DNA from: an uncultured Candidatus Saccharibacteria bacterium
GTDB taxonomy: Bacteria > Patescibacteriota > Minisyncoccia > Phycocordibacterales > UBA918
Assembly (NCBI GenBank): GCA_964552045.1
Contig: CAZKFF010000002.1
Coordinates: 3,855-67,854, forward strand
Direction of reading: 5' to 3'
DNA length: 64,000 nt
The position numbers and the translations under genes are program-made. Below, one piece after another: positions 17,755 to 61,420 of the stretch. The first letter of the stretch is position 1, and every line of letters begins with the position of its first letter. Under the pieces are notes generated by a model that saw only the letters and a program-made list of their open reading frames with translations, was not told where the DNA came from and searched no databases.

Positions 17755-17828
17755 AGGATGCGCTTAGACAAATAATACCTATGATATCGCAGCTTGTTTT
17801 GGTCTCCTAGGCTCTGGGATATTAGACA

Positions 17829-17858
17829 ACAAAAACGGGCGGACCGTAGGTCCGCCCC
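17829..17858 (-). terminator. Intrinsic terminator for the minus-strand HIT gene
   Basis: gggcggacc gtag gtccgccc hairpin with the T-run on the minus strand. Confidence 0.7.
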
Positions 17859-17862
17859 GTGC

Positions 17863-18381
17863 TTATGCCCGTTCTCCTGCATTGTAACGCGCCTCGAATT
17901 CCAAAGCGCGTGCCACGTCCTTTTCACGCTCCTCCTTGCTCTTGAAGACGGGGATGGACAGCGGCCCTGTGCCGCTCGGTACCCAGAGGTTCCAGTGAAG
18001 GTGCAGCATCGTACCGGCATTCAGGCGCATGTCGCCGAACCGGGCGAAGAGCATGCCTCCCGGCAGGTTGAAATGCGCTTCTGCGTACGCGATCATCTCA
18101 GCGAAGGAGGCCCAGGCTTGCGGCGTGACGTCGCTCAGCTTCCGCCAATGCTTTCTCGAGATGATGACAAGCATCACCTCGCACGGACGGGTGTTCTTAA
18201 AGGCGTTCTCGAACATGATCCAGTCCGCGTTCTCGTGGAGGACTGTGTTGATGCTGTGGTCCAAGCCACAGAAGCCGCAGTAGCCATCCTCGAATGTCTT
18301 GCGCAGTTGGCAATAGTACGCGAAGTCGTACGGCAGAGTGGTACAGAACCGCTCTTCCTCGGTCAGCACTTTTTGCGGCAT
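17863..18381 (-). CDS. Second HIT-like protein (HxHxN variant) with CGFCGLDH zinc motif
   Basis: TMLHLHWNLWV triad variant; paralogue of the 16410-16826 protein, on the other side of thyA. Confidence 0.6.
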   Translation of the reverse strand: MPQKVLTEEERFCTTLPYDFAYYCQLRKTFEDGYCGFCGLDHSINTVLHENADWIMFENAFKNTRPCEVMLVIISRKHWRKLSDVTPQAWASFAEMIAYAEAHFNLPGGMLFARFGDMRLNAGTMLHLHWNLWVPSGTGPLSIPVFKSKEEREKDVARALEFEARYNAGERA

Positions 18382-18486
18382 GTTCGTCTCCCGGTATCCG
18401 CTGAATTTCCAGGCGCTACTACACCATATTTACAGAGATATTTCAAGCATTTGCCGGACTGCCCTTGGTGCTACACTGAAAAGGTT

Positions 18487-18909
18487 ATGGAACTTCCCGT
18501 GCAAAAACTCCATCCGGACGCGAAATTGCCTACATTTGCACACAACACTGATGCAGGTATGGACCTGTATTGCATTGAGGAGATCACGCTTTTGCCCGGA
18601 GAACGCGGTCAGGTGAAGACCGGTATTGCCATCAGCGTGCCCGAGGGCTATGTGGGACTGATCTGGGACAAGAGCGGTATTTCGCATGTGCGGGGACTGA
18701 AGACGCTCGGCGGGGTCATTGACCACGGCTACACGGGAGAAGTGTTTGTCGGGATATACAATACAGGAAATGCTCTGCAGACATTTGGGGTCGGCGACAA
18801 GGTCGCTCAGATACTCATTCAGAAATATGAGCATCCAGCGATAGTGGAAGTATCGTCGCTTACCGCCTCAGAGCGCGGAGCGAAGGGTATTGGAAGCACA
18901 GGAAAATAA
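18487..18909 (+). CDS. dut: dUTP diphosphatase
   Basis: 140 aa with conserved dUTPase motifs (AGMDL, GLIWDKSG, IDHGYTGE); upstream part of the long ORF is not coding. Confidence 0.9.
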   Translation: MELPVQKLHPDAKLPTFAHNTDAGMDLYCIEEITLLPGERGQVKTGIAISVPEGYVGLIWDKSGISHVRGLKTLGGVIDHGYTGEVFVGIYNTGNALQTFGVGDKVAQILIQKYEHPAIVEVSSLTASERGAKGIGSTGK

Positions 18910-22304: not shown

Positions 22305-23984
22305 ATGGAAGATGTCATCAGAACGGCAGTGGCGGACGCACTTGTGAAGCTCGGATTCACGGGGAAGGATTTCGTGATCGAGCATCCGGAAAATCTCGCG
22401 TTCGGCGACTACGCGTGCAACGCGGCGATGGTTTGTGCCAAACAGGCGGGGAAGAATCCGCGAGCGCTTGCAGAGGAGATCAGAGACGCACTTGCTGGGC
22501 AGATCGAATACGTGGAGCGCATCGAGGTTGCCGGAGCGGGCTTTTTGAATTTTTACCTCGCGCGCGAATTTTTCGCTGAAGAGATCGCCCGGATCGCAGC
22601 ACTCAAAGAGAACTGGGGAAGAAACGCACTCTGCGAAGACACAATGGTGCTTCTTGAATACACGAGCCCGAACCTGTTCAAGCCGTTGCATGTTGGCAAC
22701 CTGGTCGGCAACATCGTGGGCGAGGCTATAAGCAGGCTGTTCGCTTTCTGCGGTGCGGAGGTCAAGCGCATCAACTACCCGTCGGATATCGGTCTTACGG
22801 TAGCAAAGGGTGTCTGGGGTCTGCAGCAGACTGGCGGCGATCCCGAAGACATCCTTGCGCTCGGAGAAGCATATCGCGTCGGCAATGATGCCTACGAGCA
22901 CAATGCGGATGCGAAGCTGCAGATCGAGTCGGTGAACCGCTCTCTGTATGCGGGTGATGATGCGGCGCTCAATGAGCTCCGTGCAAAAGGATTGCGCACT
23001 TCAAAAGCGAAGCTCGATGCGCTGTGCGCGCTGCTCGGCACCTCATTCGATGCGGTCATCTACGAAAGTGAAGCTGGCCCGCAGGGGACACAGATCGTAA
23101 AAGCGCACACCGGAACGGTGTTTGAAGAAAGCGAGGGTGCAATTGTCTATAAGGGAGAAAAAGCAGGACTGCACACTCGCGTGTTCCTCAATTCGCAGGG
23201 CCTGCCGACATATGAAGCGAAGGATTTGGGCAATTTTGCGATCAAGCAGGAGCGGTACCCACAGTGGGATGTTTCCATTATCGTTACCGGCAATGAGCAG
23301 AGTGAGTACTTCAAGGTCGAGTACGCGGCCATCCGGGATGTGTTCGGCGTGCCTGAGCACAAAAAGCTCGTGCATATTCCGACAGGTTTCCTCACGCTCA
23401 CAACCGGCAAGATGTCCTCGCGCAAAGGAAACGTGCTCACGGGCGAATCGCTCCTGGAAGCACTGCAGGAAGAATCGAAGAAACGCGCCGAAGAGAGCCG
23501 TGCAGAAGATGTCCGTGCGCTTGCAGAGATGGTCGCGGTTGCCGCTCTGAAGTATCAGATCCTCAAACACGGTATCGGTTCGAACATTGTCTTCGACAAA
23601 GAGAAAGCACTTTCATTCGAGGGCGATTCCGGTCCGTATCTGCAGTACACGTATGCCCGCATCGGTTCAGTAATCGAAAAGGCGCAGGCGGTTGGCATCG
23701 CGCCATCTGTTGCCGTACCACCGGCAATCGTATACGACATTGAGAAGGTGCTGTACCGTTTTGAAGAAGTGGTGCGCGATGCGATCGAAGCGTATGAACC
23801 GCAGGGCATCATCACGTATCTGACGCAGCTGTGCGGCATGTTCAATTCATTTTATGCTCATGAGAAGATCGCTGATGCAGATGATGTGTATGCGCCGTAT
23901 AAATTGGCCCTGGCACAGAGCGTCCGCTTGACGCTCCACAACGGCCTGTCTGTCCTCGGCATGCAGGCTCCCGAACGTATGTAG
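22305..23984 (+). CDS. argS: Arginine--tRNA ligase
   Basis: 559 aa; class I HIGH-like SPNLFKPLHVGN, Arg-tRNA synthetase N-terminal domain, and C-terminal anticodon-binding domain ending ...RM. Confidence 0.95.
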   Translation: MEDVIRTAVADALVKLGFTGKDFVIEHPENLAFGDYACNAAMVCAKQAGKNPRALAEEIRDALAGQIEYVERIEVAGAGFLNFYLAREFFAEEIARIAALKENWGRNALCEDTMVLLEYTSPNLFKPLHVGNLVGNIVGEAISRLFAFCGAEVKRINYPSDIGLTVAKGVWGLQQTGGDPEDILALGEAYRVGNDAYEHNADAKLQIESVNRSLYAGDDAALNELRAKGLRTSKAKLDALCALLGTSFDAVIYESEAGPQGTQIVKAHTGTVFEESEGAIVYKGEKAGLHTRVFLNSQGLPTYEAKDLGNFAIKQERYPQWDVSIIVTGNEQSEYFKVEYAAIRDVFGVPEHKKLVHIPTGFLTLTTGKMSSRKGNVLTGESLLEALQEESKKRAEESRAEDVRALAEMVAVAALKYQILKHGIGSNIVFDKEKALSFEGDSGPYLQYTYARIGSVIEKAQAVGIAPSVAVPPAIVYDIEKVLYRFEEVVRDAIEAYEPQGIITYLTQLCGMFNSFYAHEKIADADDVYAPYKLALAQSVRLTLHNGLSVLGMQAPERM

Positions 23985-24055
23985 TATTCTTTTCGCTTGC
24001 GTTTGCGGCAGTTTTTGCTTTACTAAGAAGTGCCCAGACAGGAAAGGAATCAACG

Positions 24056-24310
24056 ATGATTGCTGGACAATCCTTTAACCTGCTGGAGGCAATCTATCTG
24101 GTAGTCTGGATCGCTGTTCTCTACCTCGTTTGTATGACGGTGCTGCTCAATATCCGCAGCATTGCACGGGCAGCGTGGCGGTTGCTTTCGTCACTGCTGC
24201 AGCCTGCGCTCGCAGTTTTTGCCGAGGGATCGCGCTTCCGTGCGCGTATCCTTCGGCATGAACGCCGCGTGCAGCGTCACCAGGCGTGGATGAAGACGCT
24301 TCCACACTAA
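24056..24310 (+). CDS. Small arginine-rich membrane protein (hypothetical)
   Basis: AGGAAAGGAA SD 7 nt upstream; one or two TM helices. Confidence 0.4.
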   Translation: MIAGQSFNLLEAIYLVVWIAVLYLVCMTVLLNIRSIARAAWRLLSSLLQPALAVFAEGSRFRARILRHERRVQRHQAWMKTLPH

Positions 24311-24390
24311 AGGGGTCAAACAGGGGGTCGCGGCAACGCGCTGCGCCCCCCATCTTTCCAAGGCGATAAAAGATGCTAGGATACAAAGGC

Positions 24391-24430
24391 ATGTCTGATA
24401 CACATGCTTTTATTATGTCTGATATACATA
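24391..24430 (+). promoter_or_regulatory. Tandem 16-bp direct repeats (atgtctgataYacatR) upstream of ileS
   Basis: Two copies 24 bp apart, 14/16 identical, each with ATGT...ACAT terminal symmetry; 11 bp before the ileS ATG. Confidence 0.3.
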
Positions 24431-24440
24431 ACCATCTCAT

Positions 24441-27400
24441 ATGCAAACTCCAAAGAATACCGGCATTGGTGCTGAAAAAAGCGAAGTAGCGCTCCGCGAA
24501 GAGGAGGTGCTTGCGTTCTGGCGCGAGCACGATATTTTTCATAAAAGTCTCACCAAGGAAGCGCCCAAGGGCGATTTTATATTTTATGACGGGCCGCCGT
24601 TTGCAACGGGGCTTCCGCACTACGGCCACATCCTCGCCGGCACGATCAAAGACGCGATCCCGCGCTTCTGGACGATGAACGGCTATCGTGTGCCGCGCAA
24701 GTGGGGATGGGACTGCCATGGGCTTCCGCTTGAGAACCTCATCGAGAAGAAGCTCGGATTGGCGACCAAGCGCGACATAGAAGAGTACGGCGTGCAGAAT
24801 TTCAATGAAGCTGCGCGCGGTGCGGTTTTGGAGTACGCCGATGACTGGCGGCAGATTATTCCCCGCATGGGTCGATGGGTGGATATGGAGGATGACTACA
24901 AGACCATGGACTCGGCCTACACCGAAAGCGTATGGTGGGTATTCTCAGAGCTCCACAAAAAAGGACTGGTATATGAAGGATTCAAAAGCATGCATCTGTG
25001 TCCTCGCTGCGGCACCACGCTCTCAAACTTCGAGGTCAACCAGGGATACAAAGATATCAAGGATATTGCGGTGACGGTAAAGCTGCCGCTCTCTGACGAG
25101 CCCAATACGTCGCTTCTGGTGTGGACTACAACCCCATGGACACTGCCGGGGAACATGGCCGCGGCGGTACATAAAGATGGATTATATGTAAGTGCGACTG
25201 TTGAAAAAGTGGAGGGCCAATTACAGGGATTAGGACTTGCGAAGGGTGAGACATACATCTATGCGCAAGATTGTGAAGCCAATGTCTTTGGAGGAGACTC
25301 GGGAGTTTTAGAAGGGGCAGAGTTCGGCAAACGTGTTATCAACCTGAAAGGAGCAAATATTTATCTAGAGAACTACAAAGAATTTAAGGGATCGGCGCTT
25401 GTCGGGAAAAGGTATGTCCCGCCGTTTGACTATTTCCGCGAGCGTGACTTCGCGGGAAAAGAGAACGCATGGAAGATCTACCATGCGGATTACGTCGAGC
25501 TCGGTGAAGAGGGAACCGGCGCAGTGCATCTCGCTCCCGCATACGGAGAGGACGACATGAACCTCGCAAAGGAGCACAATATCCCGATTGTGCACCATGT
25601 GGACACTGAAGGACACTTCATGGATTTCGTCACTGATTTCGCGGGGCAGCTGGTAAAGCCGAAGGACGACGACGATGCACGCATCACGCACCTTGATGCG
25701 GACATTGAGGTGCTGAAGAAGCTCCAGGAGGAACGGGATGAGTACGGAAGCCGGCTCTTTCGCAAGGAGAACATCACCCACAGTTATCCGCACTGCTGGC
25801 GGTGCGACACGCCGCTTCTGAACTATGCGACCACGTCTTGGTTCGTTGAGGTCACCAAGATCAGGGATCAGCTGGTGGCAGAGAACAGCACGGTGCAGTG
25901 GGTACCTGAGCACGTGGGAACCAGCCGCTTCGGCAAATGGCTGGAGAACGCCCGCGACTGGGCGATCAGCCGGCAGCGCTACTGGGGCGCGCCGCTGCCC
26001 ATCTGGAGGAATCCGAAGACCAAAGAATATAAAGTGTTCGGGTCGCTGCATGACCTGCAGCAGCATGTACGCAAAAGCGGCAATACGTACCTGATCATGC
26101 GCCACGCAGAAGCGCAGAGCAACATAACGGGGCTCATCGATTCCATTCCTGACGAGAACAATCCGCTGACTGAAAAAGGGATAGAGCAGTGCGCAGCGGC
26201 TGCCGCACAGCTGAAGGATAAAAAGGTCGATCTCATTTTCCATTCGGGCATGCAGCGCACGCGAGACACAGCGCTGCGCGTGGCGCAGGCACTCGGACTT
26301 CCCCAGGAGAGTGTCATCGAAGACCGAAGGCTCCAGGAGCTGCAGACCGGCGTGGGTCTTGAAGGGAAAACCTGGGACGATTATGAGGCGCATTTTGAAA
26401 CTCCCGAGGAAAAGTTCACGAAGGTCATTCCGGGGGTTGAGAACCGCACCGATGTGCTCAAGCGCACCGGTGAGTTCCTCTATGAGGTAGACGGGAAGTA
26501 TAGCGGGAACACGATCCTCATCATCGGACATGCGAGCTCGACGTTCTCGCTGCGGAGCGTCGCTGAAGGGGCGGACATCTCCCGCAGTCTGGAAATTCGT
26601 GCGGAGGGGTATATGGAGAACGCGCAGATACTGGAATTGCCGTTCACGCCGATGCCGCACAACGACAGCTACACCCTCGATTATCACCGCCCGTACATTG
26701 ATGCTATACAGCTGTTCGAGAAGGACGGCACGCCGCTTGTGCGCGTGCCTGATGTCTTCGACTGCTGGTTCGAATCGGGATCAATGCCGTATGCGCAGAA
26801 TCATTATCCATTCGAGAACCTTGATGTGTTCAATGCGGCGAACGGAAAGGGATTTCCTGCGCAGTTCATCTCAGAGAGCATCGACCAGACGCGCGGCTGG
26901 TTCTATTCGATGATGGTGCTCGGCGTCGCGCTCTTCGGCAGATCACCGTATGAGCATGTGGTCACCAACGGCCTCGTGCTTGCCGAAGACGGAAAGAAGA
27001 TGTCGAAAAAGCTGCAGAACTATCCGGATCCGGTTGAGCTCGCGAACCGCGTCGGAGCGGACGCCATACGGTTCTATATGCTCTCCTCTTCCATCATTCG
27101 GGGAGAAGATCTCAACTTTTCTGAAAAAGGGGTACTGGAGCTGCAGCGGAAGAACATCGGACGCCTGCACAATGTACTCGCGATGTATGAGATGTTTGCC
27201 GACGCCACGCAGGCGCGCGCTTCTTCAGAACACGTGCTTGACCGCTGGATCGTGTCGCGCCTCCATGAGCTCGTCGCGGAATCGACCCAGGGCTTCAAAA
27301 ACTACGAGCTCGACAAGGCGACCCGTCCGGTGACGGACTTCATCGACGACGTATCCGTATGGTATCTGCGCCGCTCGCGCGACCGGTTCAAGTCAGACGA

Positions 27401-28067
27401 CGAGGCAGACCGCCAGTGCGCACTTTCGACCCTGCGGTATGTGCTTCAGACGCTTGCGCTTGTTCTGGCGCCGTCCATGCCGTTCTACGCCGAGTATCTG
27501 TGGGGAAGGGTGAGGGAGGATGACGCGCCAGAAAGCGTGCATCTTGCTTCCTGGCCGCAGGGAGGAGCGATCGACGCCGATCTTCAGAACGCGATGAAGG
27601 AAGTACGCGATATCGTTTCCCTTGCCCTTGAGGAGCGCACCAGATCGGGTATCAAAGTGCGCCAGCCGCTTTCGATGTTGTTCCTCCGCGAAGACAGCAT
27701 CGTGCGGCACGAACCGTACCGCAGCCTTGTGCTCGATGAAGTGAATGTCAAAGAGATCGATCATAAGCCGCATATTGAGAACAGAGTGGCACTCGATACG
27801 CAGATCACCCCTGAGCTTCGGGCAGAAGGGGACGTCCGTGAATTTGTCCGTCAGGTGCAGGACATGCGCAAACAGGCAGGATTGCAGCCGAGGGACCGCA
27901 TCGTGCTGTGCATCCAGACCTCGAAGGAAGGAGAAATGATGATAGACCTGTACCGTCGGGAGATAGAGAAGATCGTGGGTGCCGAACTGATCGCATTCAG
28001 CGAGAACAATGGGCAGGAGCTGCGCGCCGGCGAGCATTCGTTCACCGTCACGCTCGAGAAGCGATAG
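24441..28067 (+). CDS. ileS: Isoleucine--tRNA ligase carrying an inserted histidine-phosphatase (PGAM-like) domain
   Basis: 1208 aa; HIGH (PHYGH), CP1 editing motifs (TTPWTLP, GTGAVHLAPAYGEDD), WAISRQRYWG, KMSKK; ~200 extra aa (about aa 546-745, nt ~26076-26675) with LIMRHAEAQ and IIGHASS histidine-phosphatase signatures. Confidence 0.9.
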   Translation: MQTPKNTGIGAEKSEVALREEEVLAFWREHDIFHKSLTKEAPKGDFIFYDGPPFATGLPHYGHILAGTIKDAIPRFWTMNGYRVPRKWGWDCHGLPLENLIEKKLGLATKRDIEEYGVQNFNEAARGAVLEYADDWRQIIPRMGRWVDMEDDYKTMDSAYTESVWWVFSELHKKGLVYEGFKSMHLCPRCGTTLSNFEVNQGYKDIKDIAVTVKLPLSDEPNTSLLVWTTTPWTLPGNMAAAVHKDGLYVSATVEKVEGQLQGLGLAKGETYIYAQDCEANVFGGDSGVLEGAEFGKRVINLKGANIYLENYKEFKGSALVGKRYVPPFDYFRERDFAGKENAWKIYHADYVELGEEGTGAVHLAPAYGEDDMNLAKEHNIPIVHHVDTEGHFMDFVTDFAGQLVKPKDDDDARITHLDADIEVLKKLQEERDEYGSRLFRKENITHSYPHCWRCDTPLLNYATTSWFVEVTKIRDQLVAENSTVQWVPEHVGTSRFGKWLENARDWAISRQRYWGAPLPIWRNPKTKEYKVFGSLHDLQQHVRKSGNTYLIMRHAEAQSNITGLIDSIPDENNPLTEKGIEQCAAAAAQLKDKKVDLIFHSGMQRTRDTALRVAQALGLPQESVIEDRRLQELQTGVGLEGKTWDDYEAHFETPEEKFTKVIPGVENRTDVLKRTGEFLYEVDGKYSGNTILIIGHASSTFSLRSVAEGADISRSLEIRAEGYMENAQILELPFTPMPHNDSYTLDYHRPYIDAIQLFEKDGTPLVRVPDVFDCWFESGSMPYAQNHYPFENLDVFNAANGKGFPAQFISESIDQTRGWFYSMMVLGVALFGRSPYEHVVTNGLVLAEDGKKMSKKLQNYPDPVELANRVGADAIRFYMLSSSIIRGEDLNFSEKGVLELQRKNIGRLHNVLAMYEMFADATQARASSEHVLDRWIVSRLHELVAESTQGFKNYELDKATRPVTDFIDDVSVWYLRRSRDRFKSDDEADRQCALSTLRYVLQTLALVLAPSMPFYAEYLWGRVREDDAPESVHLASWPQGGAIDADLQNAMKEVRDIVSLALEERTRSGIKVRQPLSMLFLREDSIVRHEPYRSLVLDEVNVKEIDHKPHIENRVALDTQITPELRAEGDVREFVRQVQDMRKQAGLQPRDRIVLCIQTSKEGEMMIDLYRREIEKIVGAELIAFSENNGQELRAGEHSFTVTLEKR

Positions 28068-28071
28068 GCAG

Positions 28072-28653
28072 ATGTCATACAAAACATACACAACAGAGGC
28101 TATCGTGTGCGGCAGCACGCACCACAACACCTCGGATAAGCATTATCTGCTGTTCTGTAGGGACGCCGGGATGGTATACGCAAGTGCGCGAAGCGTGCGG
28201 GAAGAACGGTCTAAACAGCGATACGCACTTCAGGATTTTTCACATGTTCGTATCTCACTGCTGAAAGGGAAGAACGGATGGCGCGTGGGGAGCGTCGAAT
28301 CCTTCGGCAATGCGTTTCTGCGCGCGGAGAACCGGGCGCAGCGGGGACACATCAATTTCCTCTTCAACCAGCTGCGCCGCTACGTGCATGGTGAAGTGCC
28401 CGTCCCCCGCGCATATGCGGACATGGAATGGATATTCGCACACCAGGGTGCACTGCAGCAGGAGGGTGTGCTCATACAGCAGCTGTTTGTGCTGCGGCTT
28501 CTTGCCGAACTCGGCTATATCGCATCCGAGGAAAGCTGGAAAAGCCTACTGACTGCACCGACAATACAGGAAGCCTGTTCAGCGTATGTACCGGCTATGG
28601 AGGGAGCCATTGCGCGTGTCATCAGATCCGCAGCGGAGGCAAGTCACTTATAA
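28072..28653 (+). CDS. recO: DNA repair protein RecO (short form)
   Basis: Start at MSYKTYTTEAIV five nt after the ileS stop; OB-fold N-terminus typical of RecO; the upstream ORF extension overlaps ileS. Confidence 0.6.
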   Translation: MSYKTYTTEAIVCGSTHHNTSDKHYLLFCRDAGMVYASARSVREERSKQRYALQDFSHVRISLLKGKNGWRVGSVESFGNAFLRAENRAQRGHINFLFNQLRRYVHGEVPVPRAYADMEWIFAHQGALQQEGVLIQQLFVLRLLAELGYIASEESWKSLLTAPTIQEACSAYVPAMEGAIARVIRSAAEASHL

Positions 28654-57142: not shown

Positions 57143-57875
57143 CACATTGTTATGAAATTTGAGTTAAGAAAACTGTAGCGGGACACGAGTTCTTAAAGGA
57201 TTCTTGTGCCGCGAAAAGCGGTTTTTTTAAAAACAAAGTTCAAGGTACGATGCGATTTTTGAAAATTGCATATTCTACTCGGATCGGGTGTAGGATACCC
57301 GGTCCGGTATAAGTCCTGTGTGCTCGACACACACAGGCATGTTCGCGTTCTCGTCGTTACTACGTCACAGCGAGGACAAGAGCAAGCTTGCTTGTTTTTA
57401 GTCCGAGCGAAGACGAAGTAAACACCGCAAGGTGTTTGCTGTTTCGAGAACGCGAACAAAGGTAGTGCGCAGAGTTAAGATTATGTACAAACGGTACAGG
57501 GTCTTTTCGTCCTCTGCGCACATCAAAACACATCGAGTCTTCAAGAGTCGTATTTTCTCTTGAAGACACAACACACTCAAAAAAATTGTACAGCGGTGTG
57601 AGAAAGTCCGGTGGACTTTCGCAAGAGGTTGCCTGTCTGCTGTCACAGCAGCGACAACCTGAACAGCTCCTGTAAGGAGCAGCATTCCTTGCGAATTTCT
57701 CAGAGTCGACTTTCTTAATATCGTTGTGCATGAAAAATTGTACAGCGGTGTACAGCATTCCTTACTGCGGAGTGAGCGAGTGTCGCGCAAAAGTTTACTT
57801 TTGCATGACCGAGCGAACGAACGCAGAAAGGTAACGAGTACGAAATATCGCAATGCGATGTCCAGTATTCCTTAC
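57143..57875 (+). other. Long structured 23S rRNA leader with internal ~150-bp imperfect tandem duplication and 5' arm of the processing stem
   Basis: Nested long-range helices (gttcgcgttctcg/cgagaacgcgaac; 11-bp gtcttcaagag hairpin); direct repeat aaaaattgtacagcggtgt at 57581 and 57733; agtattccttacagg pairs with cctgtaaggaatact at 60865-60879. Confidence 0.5.
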
Positions 57876-60885
<3,010 letters not shown>

Positions 60886-61310: not shown

Positions 61311-61420
61311 AGTTGGTGCTTTGGCCAAGAGGGTACACCTGTTCTCATTCCGAACACAGAAGTTAAGCTCTTCCGCACCGATGGTACTCCGCAAGGGGGA
61401 GAGTAGGTTGGCGCCAACTT
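61311..61420 (+). rRNA. rrf: 5S ribosomal RNA
   Basis: CCGAACACAGAAGTTAAGC and GGTACTCCGCAAGGGGGAGAGTAGG conserved blocks; terminal helix gttggtgc/gcgccaac. Confidence 0.85.

Follow-up and report, generated by a model that had tools for sequence, protein, structure and literature searches.

An in-frame phosphatase domain in ileS

The stretch of DNA analysed here, which we call the window, is 64,000 nucleotides long and comes from an uncultured Candidatus Saccharibacteria bacterium of the candidate phyla radiation (CPR) (GenBank assembly GCA_964552045.1, contig CAZKFF010000002.1, positions 3,855 to 67,854 of the forward strand). Its ileS gene (24441-28067, forward strand) encodes a type-2 isoleucyl-tRNA synthetase (IleRS) of 1208 amino acids (aa), and within this reading frame lies a predicted histidine phosphatase domain of the PhoE/PspA-like kind (aa 544-743; 26070-26669, forward strand). 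An earlier note, made by a model from the letters alone, had described an in-frame branch-1 histidine phosphatase with both catalytic-histidine motifs, placed between ISRQRYWG and HRPYID/DVFDCWFESGS in an otherwise collinear 1208-aa IleRS, and each element of that description was recovered, including all the motifs it quoted, in the order given. The interval that it assigned to the insert, 26076-26675 (aa 546-745), covers the same feature and is shifted by two codons relative to the boundaries drawn here.

The host protein scores 836.8 bits against the TIGR00392 ileS profile (cut-off 621.4), carries the Pfam domains tRNA-synt_1, Anticodon_1 and DUF5915, and has the IleRS2 entries 8c8u and 8c8v as its nearest solved structures, its best solved relatives being IleRS2 and eukaryotic IleRS. 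By these matches the host enzyme is a bona fide type-2 IleRS. The HIGH-type signature of the synthetic site reads HYGH (aa 60-63; 24618-24629, forward strand), and across 76 sequences H60, G62 and H63 never vary, with Y61 conserved to at least 90%. Both editing motifs of connective peptide 1 (CP1), TTPWTLP (aa 230-236) and GTGAVHLAPAYGEDD (aa 358-372), are present, followed by WAISRQRYWG (aa 507-516). On the far side of the insert stand HRPYID (aa 749-754), DVFDCWFESGS (aa 771-781) and KMSKK (aa 853-857; 26997-27011, forward strand), the last being the KMSKS loop, 110 residues downstream of the insert. The protein does not belong to the curated exceptions within the family, since it scores 291.2 against NF040702, the model for IleRS with a GNAT domain (cut-off 1999; the domain is absent), and 647.6 and 673.3 against the MupA and MupB models (cut-off 1900 each).

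Pfam identifies the insert as His_Phos_1 (PF00300), which matches aa 551-721 in the whole protein (86.9 bits, E 1.8e-24) and scores 91.2 bits (E 8.7e-26) against the insert alone, the gathering score being 21.7. It is the single His_Phos_1 stretch in the protein, with the motifs LIMRHAEAQSN (aa 551-561) and IIGHASS (aa 694-700), and the tRNA-synt_1 match is broken into two stretches, one on each side of it. Modelled alone, the insert is predicted to form a compact alpha/beta domain of phosphoglycerate mutase-like fold (predicted local distance difference test, pLDDT, 95.1; predicted template modelling score 0.92), and residues 540-745 reach a pLDDT of 90-97 in the full-length model. A separate observation on that AlphaFold model (24441-28040) is that pLDDT falls below 50 in several highly conserved synthetase segments, unlike in the insert, for example at residues 52-56 just ahead of the HIGH motif, 181-209, 445-467, 503-515, 772-786 and 844-859 around KMSKK, probably because the underlying alignment is shallow and its members closely related.

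Structural comparison, with Foldseek in agreement (template modelling score 0.72-0.77), places the insert nearest to short capped small-molecule phosphatases of branch 1, all of them metabolic: the phosphoserine phosphatase PspA of H. thermophilus (4ij5), PhoE of B. stearothermophilus (1h2e/1ebb), HFP (9mmh), the Rv2419c product GpgP (4pz9) and CobC (6e4b). The insert is 21-26% identical to these enzymes, at most 26% identical to any solved enzyme, and misses the cut-offs of their curated families. Moreover, they are free-standing metabolic proteins, whereas the phosphatase of the window is embedded in IleRS and that of its relatives is encoded beside it. The identity of a glycolytic mutase (dPGM) was considered and rejected, since the insert scores 20.7 against TIGR01258 (cut-off 81.7) and at most 16 bits against PRK14115-type models (cut-offs above 300). 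Following E633 the insert reads ELQTG, where dPGM has Arg and Tyr.

The predicted active site is made up of R554 and H555 in the RHA motif (codons 26100-26105), H555 being the putative phospho-accepting nucleophile; R606, the second phosphate-binding Arg, in an RTxxTA motif (26256-26258); E633, the predicted general acid/base (26337-26339); and H697, the second catalytic His, in a GHAS motif (26529-26531), all on the forward strand. R554, H555, N561, R606, E633 and H697 are invariant in 120 of 120 nearest homologues. In a representative set, the Arg/His/Arg/His combination is kept in 93/93 IleRS inserts and in all 130 domains, and the position of E633 is Glu in 92 of the 93 inserts and Asp in the other. 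The insert as a whole diverges faster than the synthetase body (58% versus 74% mean identity among the nearest homologues), and the invariance of the catalytic residues against this background suggests that the active site is under selection. The RHA sequence, which had been flagged as a departure from RHG, is indeed present but is no anomaly: position 556 is Ala in 58% of the 120 homologues, and by this alignment RHA is normal for the clade. Thus the insert is, as judged from its sequence, a complete branch-1 histidine phosphatase domain with an intact and conserved predicted active site.

In the alignment with 8c8u (P. megaterium IleRS2), query residue 543 pairs with chain residue 478 and query residue 744 with chain residue 484, so that about 200 residues stand where 8c8u has about 5. 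The flanks form the two arms of a hairpin, an N-terminal arm (WAISRQRYWGAPLPIWRNPKTKEYKVFGSLHDLQQHV; 25959-26069, forward strand), in which the CxxC zinc ligands of relatives are lost, and a C-terminal arm with the return into the Rossmann fold (…YTLDYHRPYIDAIQLFEKDGTPLVRVPDVFDCWFESGS; 26670-26783, forward strand). An insert-free relative, 46% identical to the window IleRS, reads PIWVCDKCKKKVVVGSIKELEKLSSVKVTDLHKHFIDKIEFSCSCDGSMKRVPDVLDCWFESGS here, a zinc knuckle of the form CxxC…CxC whose loop is short, and the unfused relative at locus L081 has PIWVCDKCKK at the N-terminal arm. The phosphatase is thus seated in the zinc-knuckle loop, a surface hairpin between the connective peptide region and the second half of the Rossmann fold; the earlier placement of it in the catalytic core holds for the catalytic domain but not for the core itself. 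We take this site to be the slot that the leucine-specific domain occupies in leucyl-tRNA synthetase (LeuRS). In 54 fused IleRS of the window's clade none of the four zinc-ligand Cys remains, and 4 other fused IleRS retain them, which implies that insertion came first and loss of the zinc ligands later. At the junction, P739, N741, D742, D747 and the run H749-D754 show no variation, H740 being 99% conserved, which suggests fixed docking of the domain and not a floppy tether.

Fused and stand-alone forms

The fused architecture is widespread. PF00300 is present in 120/120 best homologues of the window protein, drawn from NCBI, JGI, ENA and Logan assemblies (63-100% identity, 1153-1233 aa), with inserts of 198-203 aa. 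A pattern scan that took one genome for each GTDB species gave at least 494 confirmed stretches, and the best 80 of these loci all lie within IleRS reading frames, about 1140-1270 aa long where the contig is complete. Lineage names at these loci include Kaiser-, Nomura-, Adler-, Lloyd- and Taylorbacteria, Paceibacterota/Paceibacteria and Parcubacteria, and one locus is on a closed 0.99-Mb chromosome (CP060229.1). A chimeric assembly, that is, a mis-join of an ileS contig with a phosphatase gene, was an artefact that the earlier note wished to see excluded; it is ruled out to the point of negligible probability because the same in-frame architecture recurs in independent assemblies, in all 120 nearest homologues and all 80 best genome loci, the closed chromosome among them. 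Nor is there a composition break, the GC content across the insert (0.56-0.59) being the same as in the rest of ileS. Judged by this distribution, the fused phosphatase is a module that runs through the lineage of Paceibacteria-type CPR bacteria. Among public proteins, hundreds combine PF00133 with PF00300, and their labels say no more than "class I tRNA ligase family protein", "isoleucyl-tRNA synthetase" or "hypothetical protein", which leaves a gap in annotation.

The same phosphatase also occurs as a protein of its own. Searching 1.84 billion cluster representatives exhaustively by HMMER, with the insert as query, gave 4021 matches at E ≤ 1e-3, 346 of them at E ≤ 1e-10; a word-index search with the insert alone returned one fragment only. 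Among the best 150 of the 4021 matches, 94 are IleRS-like by a motif screen, and the remainder include free-standing proteins of about 185-195 aa. Four free-standing genes were examined at locus level (L081 6001-6570; L084 4184-4771; L085 5675-6238; L083 581-1147). Three of them lie 1-7 nt upstream of an insert-free ileS of 931-991 aa, and the gene order at these loci (L081, L084 and L085), argS - phosphatase - ileS - … - recO, is the synteny of the window. The fourth follows argS and is convergent with ileS.

To extend this comparison, metagenomes were scanned with a pattern seeded by the free-standing form and built from a 5-sequence alignment, a 16-sequence alignment being too divergent, which yielded 80 loci (L089-L168). 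The phosphatase is a separate open reading frame with IleRS immediately downstream on the same strand in 44 of the 80, has IleRS about 700 nt downstream in 1, and lies within the IleRS frame in 27; in 6 the contig ends within 900 nt downstream, which makes them uninformative, and 2 are on short contigs (about 2 kb) with no IleRS. Thus the phosphatase is physically linked to ileS, adjacent or inside, in 72/74 informative loci, at best-segment identities to the query of only 39-55%. ArgRS precedes the stand-alone phosphatase in 45/80 loci. In rough neighbour-joining trees of host and domain alike, which are star-like with long branches and not usable for event counts, fused and unfused states interleave, suggesting that the two formats were exchanged more than once.

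IleRS is not the only host. A valyl-tRNA synthetase (ValRS; P0161, with PPPNVTG and DWCISRQIWWGHRIPVWY) carries four His_Phos_1 copies, and 70 of its 119 best relatives, from sources that include Gracilibacteria and Peregrinibacteria, have the domain. Nearly all ValRS copies sit at the homologous ISRQ…WFSS site, 1-3 in tandem, with an extra or sole copy ahead of ISRQ in a few relatives, and one Nomurabacteria ValRS among the same relatives has no insert. Across 73 ValRS copies the Arg/His/Arg residues are kept in all 73, the second His in 69 and the Glu in 53. We found no description of this ValRS insertion in the literature. In addition, one TsaC/YrdC protein, of the threonylcarbamoyl-AMP synthase family, is fused at its C terminus to the same type of histidine phosphatase (P0254; L088 977-2140).

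Other cargo turned up in related synthetases. An IleRS fragment of 1066 aa (P0264) holds three foreign inserts in one enzyme: an IS200-like Y1 transposase-like domain in CP1 (aa 340-461), a phosphatase in an intact zinc knuckle (aa 680-854) and a GNAT acetyltransferase after HFPFEN (aa 935-1063). The ValRS relatives P0294 and P0303 have a DUF559/Vsr-like endonuclease domain (ahead of ISRQ) or a C-terminal HU-like DNA-binding domain. The variety of this unrelated cargo suggests that class Ia synthetases of CPR bacteria are generally permissive hosts.

The earlier note had held that the architecture was undescribed, which does not stand. Besides the hundreds of public proteins with both Pfam domains, a CPR IleRS interrupted in frame by domains of the phosphoglycerate mutase superfamily was mentioned by Kantor et al. 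in 2013 (mBio, PMC3812714), who state in one sentence, with no site, conservation analysis or function, that the IleRS of SR1 is split by a Nudix domain together with a pair of phosphoglycerate mutase domains. The window enzyme is of this kind, seen once before, but differs in copy number and lineage and in lacking Nudix: it has one phosphatase domain, no second mutase domain and no Nudix domain, and it comes from a different CPR class, with Paceibacteria-like names. Pfam finds no Nudix domain in the window protein, and a search for the Nudix box in all fetched proteins gave none. Full-text literature searches gave no other mention of a phosphatase-bearing IleRS, and a 2026 preprint that annotates 96,219 IleRS by canonical domains does not mention the phosphatase insertion. 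As far as we found, four aspects are new: the extent of the fusion over hundreds of species, its exact position in the enzyme, the existence of a free-standing form encoded in an operon, and the parallel in ValRS.

The IleRS of model NF040702, with its N-acetyltransferase domain, is a curated precedent for an extra catalytic domain in this enzyme; in P0264, which has both His_Phos and GNAT, the GNAT domain occupies a different site. Modules inserted in the catalytic domain of class Ia synthetases are also known from the leucine-specific domain of LeuRS and from the CAAD anchors of cyanobacterial ValRS, IleRS and LeuRS. These modules are non-enzymatic, serving tRNA and KMSKS-loop handling or membrane anchoring, in contrast to the complete extra active site predicted for the window insert, which would be the second active site of its IleRS, or the third if editing is counted. 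Cyanobacterial ValRS is described as membrane-anchored (PMC4893482).

What the phosphatase may do

The explanation that we favor, with a probability of roughly 0.6 for the whole, is that the insert is a catalytically competent, IleRS-dedicated phosphatase acting on a nucleotide-type phosphate. Its two parts differ in strength. That the domain is an active phosphatase functionally dedicated to IleRS is quite likely on the sequence evidence, namely the invariant catalytic residues, the stand-alone gene beside ileS, the linkage in 72 of 74 loci and the interleaving of fused and unfused states. Within that reading, the assignment to a nucleotide-type class of substrate is tentative and somewhat short of an even chance.

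According to this explanation, a short capped phosphatase of the PhoE/PspA/CobC type has been inserted, without breaking the reading frame, at the tip of the hairpin that forms the zinc knuckle in type-2 IleRS. Sister lineages make the same protein from a separate gene of about 190 aa, translated directly ahead of an insert-free ileS, and in the window it has become part of the enzyme. By the standard two-step mechanism, R554, R606 and H697 would hold the terminal phosphoryl group while H555 attacks it to give phospho-His, and E633 would protonate the leaving group and then activate a water molecule for hydrolysis. The substrate may be a small nucleotide-type phosphate ester or anhydride made at, or competing for, the adenylate-forming site; candidates are side-reaction products of ATP or aminoacyl-AMP such as ADP or adenosine tetraphosphate (p4A), or fragments derived from diadenosine tetraphosphate (Ap4A). 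Removing it would keep the synthetase running.

Several observations favor a substrate of this class. The fold is of the small-molecule type, and the partners, IleRS, ValRS and TsaC, share the conversion of ATP to an acyl-AMP and pyrophosphate, which points to adenylate or nucleotide chemistry rather than to isoleucine. Consistent with this, the SR1 enzyme adds a Nudix domain (PMC3812714), whose substrates are nucleoside diphosphate derivatives, and a Nudix domain is likewise paired with an RHG histidine phosphatase in mycobacterial MutT1 (PMC11784022), where an enzyme of nucleotide chemistry carries a histidine phosphatase of branch 1, in parallel to the SR1 IleRS.

Other observations weigh against our explanation. 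The insert alone falls far below the cut-off of every curated specific family (CobC TIGR03162, 62.5 versus 162.9; archaeal dPGM NF038349, 60.9 versus 225; PspA NF045917, 52.5 versus 350; SixA TIGR00249, 36 versus 74.5), so that the sequence names no substrate. In MutT1, the phosphatase domain was long taken for an enzyme of nucleotides but dephosphorylates phospho-His proteins and sensor kinases (PMC12407098), and the Nudix analogy can therefore be read either way. Only one TsaC fusion was seen. An enzyme of small molecules gains little kinetically by tethering. Finally, DUF559, Y1-transposase-like, GNAT and HU cargo occurs elsewhere in these synthetases, and the site may simply tolerate insertions.

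The main rival, which we consider unlikely, is that the domain strips a phosphate from the acceptor end of tRNA(Ile) so that damaged or unprocessed tRNA can be charged; the group removed might be a 3'-phosphate, an opened 2',3'-cyclic phosphate, a 3'-pyrophosphate added by a toxin, or a 5'-phosphate. The position of the insert speaks for this, since the hairpin lies beside the synthetic site and the homologous site is used in ValRS. Moreover, loss of a stop codon in the ancestral gene, directly upstream, would have given an N-terminal fusion, and the precise insertion into a loop instead suggests that position matters. The leucine-specific domain of LeuRS is in contact with the acceptor arm, phosphatase and 2',3'-cyclic phosphodiesterase activity resides in the HD domain of the E. 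coli CCA-adding enzyme, and toxSAS toxins pyrophosphorylate the CCA end of tRNA. However, the fold is the capped small-molecule type and not the open SixA type, TsaC does not bind tRNA, and we know of no branch-1 histidine phosphatase that acts on RNA ends. The net charge of IleRS inserts averages -5.6 (-10 in the window) and is widely variable, which is evidence of little weight but speaks against a conserved basic surface for RNA binding. A role as protein phosphatase or as regulatory module, which dephosphorylates IleRS itself (a Ser near the KMSKS loop modified by a HipA-like kinase, or an aberrant phospho-His) or signals charging status, is distinctly improbable. It would suit the KMSKK loop 110 residues downstream and the invariant junction residues, with the fixed docking geometry that they suggest, and HipA and HipT are known to inactivate GluRS and TrpRS by phosphorylation. 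Branch 1 does include protein phosphatases, namely SixA, PGAM5, Sts and the C-terminal domain of MutT1 (PMC12407098), but these score lower as structural neighbours of the insert than the metabolic enzymes do (SixA 15.0, PGAM5 14.8, Sts-2 13.8, MutT1-type 13.0-13.3).

The phosphatase could also be a hitch-hiker, a general phosphatase, mutase or phosphoserine phosphatase with no mechanistic link to aminoacylation that started as an operon neighbour and later came to sit in a permissive loop of a gene that is essential and constitutively expressed, the genome being streamlined. The metabolic nature of its nearest structural neighbours and the tolerance of CPR class Ia synthetases for unrelated insertions agree with such a history, and gene order is so strongly conserved in CPR bacteria that adjacency alone says little. 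We nevertheless find it improbable, because linkage to ileS persists while the phosphatases themselves have diverged to 39-55% identity, captures appear to have been repeated and independent (the IleRS knuckle, two ValRS sites with tandem copies, TsaC), all known partners are adenylate-forming translation enzymes, the dPGM models do not match, and insertion into a loop is far less likely to arise neutrally than end-to-end fusion of adjacent genes. More improbable by far is that the domain merely stands in for the zinc knuckle as a scaffold and that its chemistry is irrelevant. The loss of all four zinc-ligand Cys in the window's clade looks as if the insert had taken over their stabilizing role, yet some fused enzymes retain these ligands, free-standing orthologues exist, and the catalytic set does not change over hundreds of diverged copies, even though the remainder of the insert drifts faster than its host.

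A dedicated, active phosphatase would also allow a bolder and rather doubtful proposal, that it is a third catalytic centre of CPR class Ia synthetases, a "phospho-proofreading" or repair activity coupled to aminoacylation, which may either clear tRNA acceptor ends phosphorylated through toxin or nuclease damage or destroy a nucleotide side-product or inhibitor. If so, the activity of IleRS in vivo (of ValRS in Gracilibacteria) would depend on the phosphatase, and the stand-alone, operon-encoded form would serve this system as a subunit acting in trans. Few enzymes have been studied as well as the aminoacyl-tRNA synthetases, and the catalytic modules added to them are almost all editing hydrolases. 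In several hundred genomes of the CPR, a major uncultured radiation, a phosphatase that looks active is retained within IleRS or ValRS or is translated just ahead of the synthetase, and the linkage pattern points to a conserved step tied to aminoacylation in organisms with minimal genomes. This could reveal a new form of translation quality control or repair, or a missing metabolic function of CPR bacteria.

Genes around ileS

The neighbourhood of ileS in the window is ordinary CPR housekeeping, with genes for dUTPase, thymidylate kinase, SHMT, ArgRS, IleRS and RecO, and further for a DUF11 surface protein, a class II synthetase, MetRS and TatD. Upstream lies argS (22305-23984, forward strand; Pfam Arg_tRNA_synt_N, tRNA-synt_1d and DALR_1), separated from ileS by a non-coding 457-bp spacer (23985-24440), the position that the phosphatase gene fills in relatives that have it as a separate gene. 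The spacer holds no relic of a stand-alone phosphatase gene by tblastn (nothing better than E = 1), and a T-box or other leader RNA sought there with Rfam was not found at threshold (best match E 0.66). Across 1.5 Mb of fetched loci, all of them ileS neighbourhoods, the signature of family I pyrophosphatase does not occur, a result that is silent on whole genomes.

Elsewhere in the window, a 23S rRNA gene (57872-60874; 3003 nt against a 2925-position model) is followed by 5S rRNA (61312-61419); no 16S rRNA occurs in the 57 kb upstream, and the 16S gene is thus not adjacent upstream of the 23S/5S pair. The dUTPase domain covers only residues 243-370 of a 371-aa open reading frame (17794-18909, TTG start), whose 240-residue N-terminal part has no Pfam match and may reflect an over-extended frame or a fused domain. 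Downstream of ileS, the recO-like gene (28009-28653, forward strand; Pfam RecO_N) begins, as listed, 59 nt ahead of the ileS stop (28009-28067), so that the two may overlap; its RecO_N match starts at residue 26, which suggests that the true start may be further downstream.

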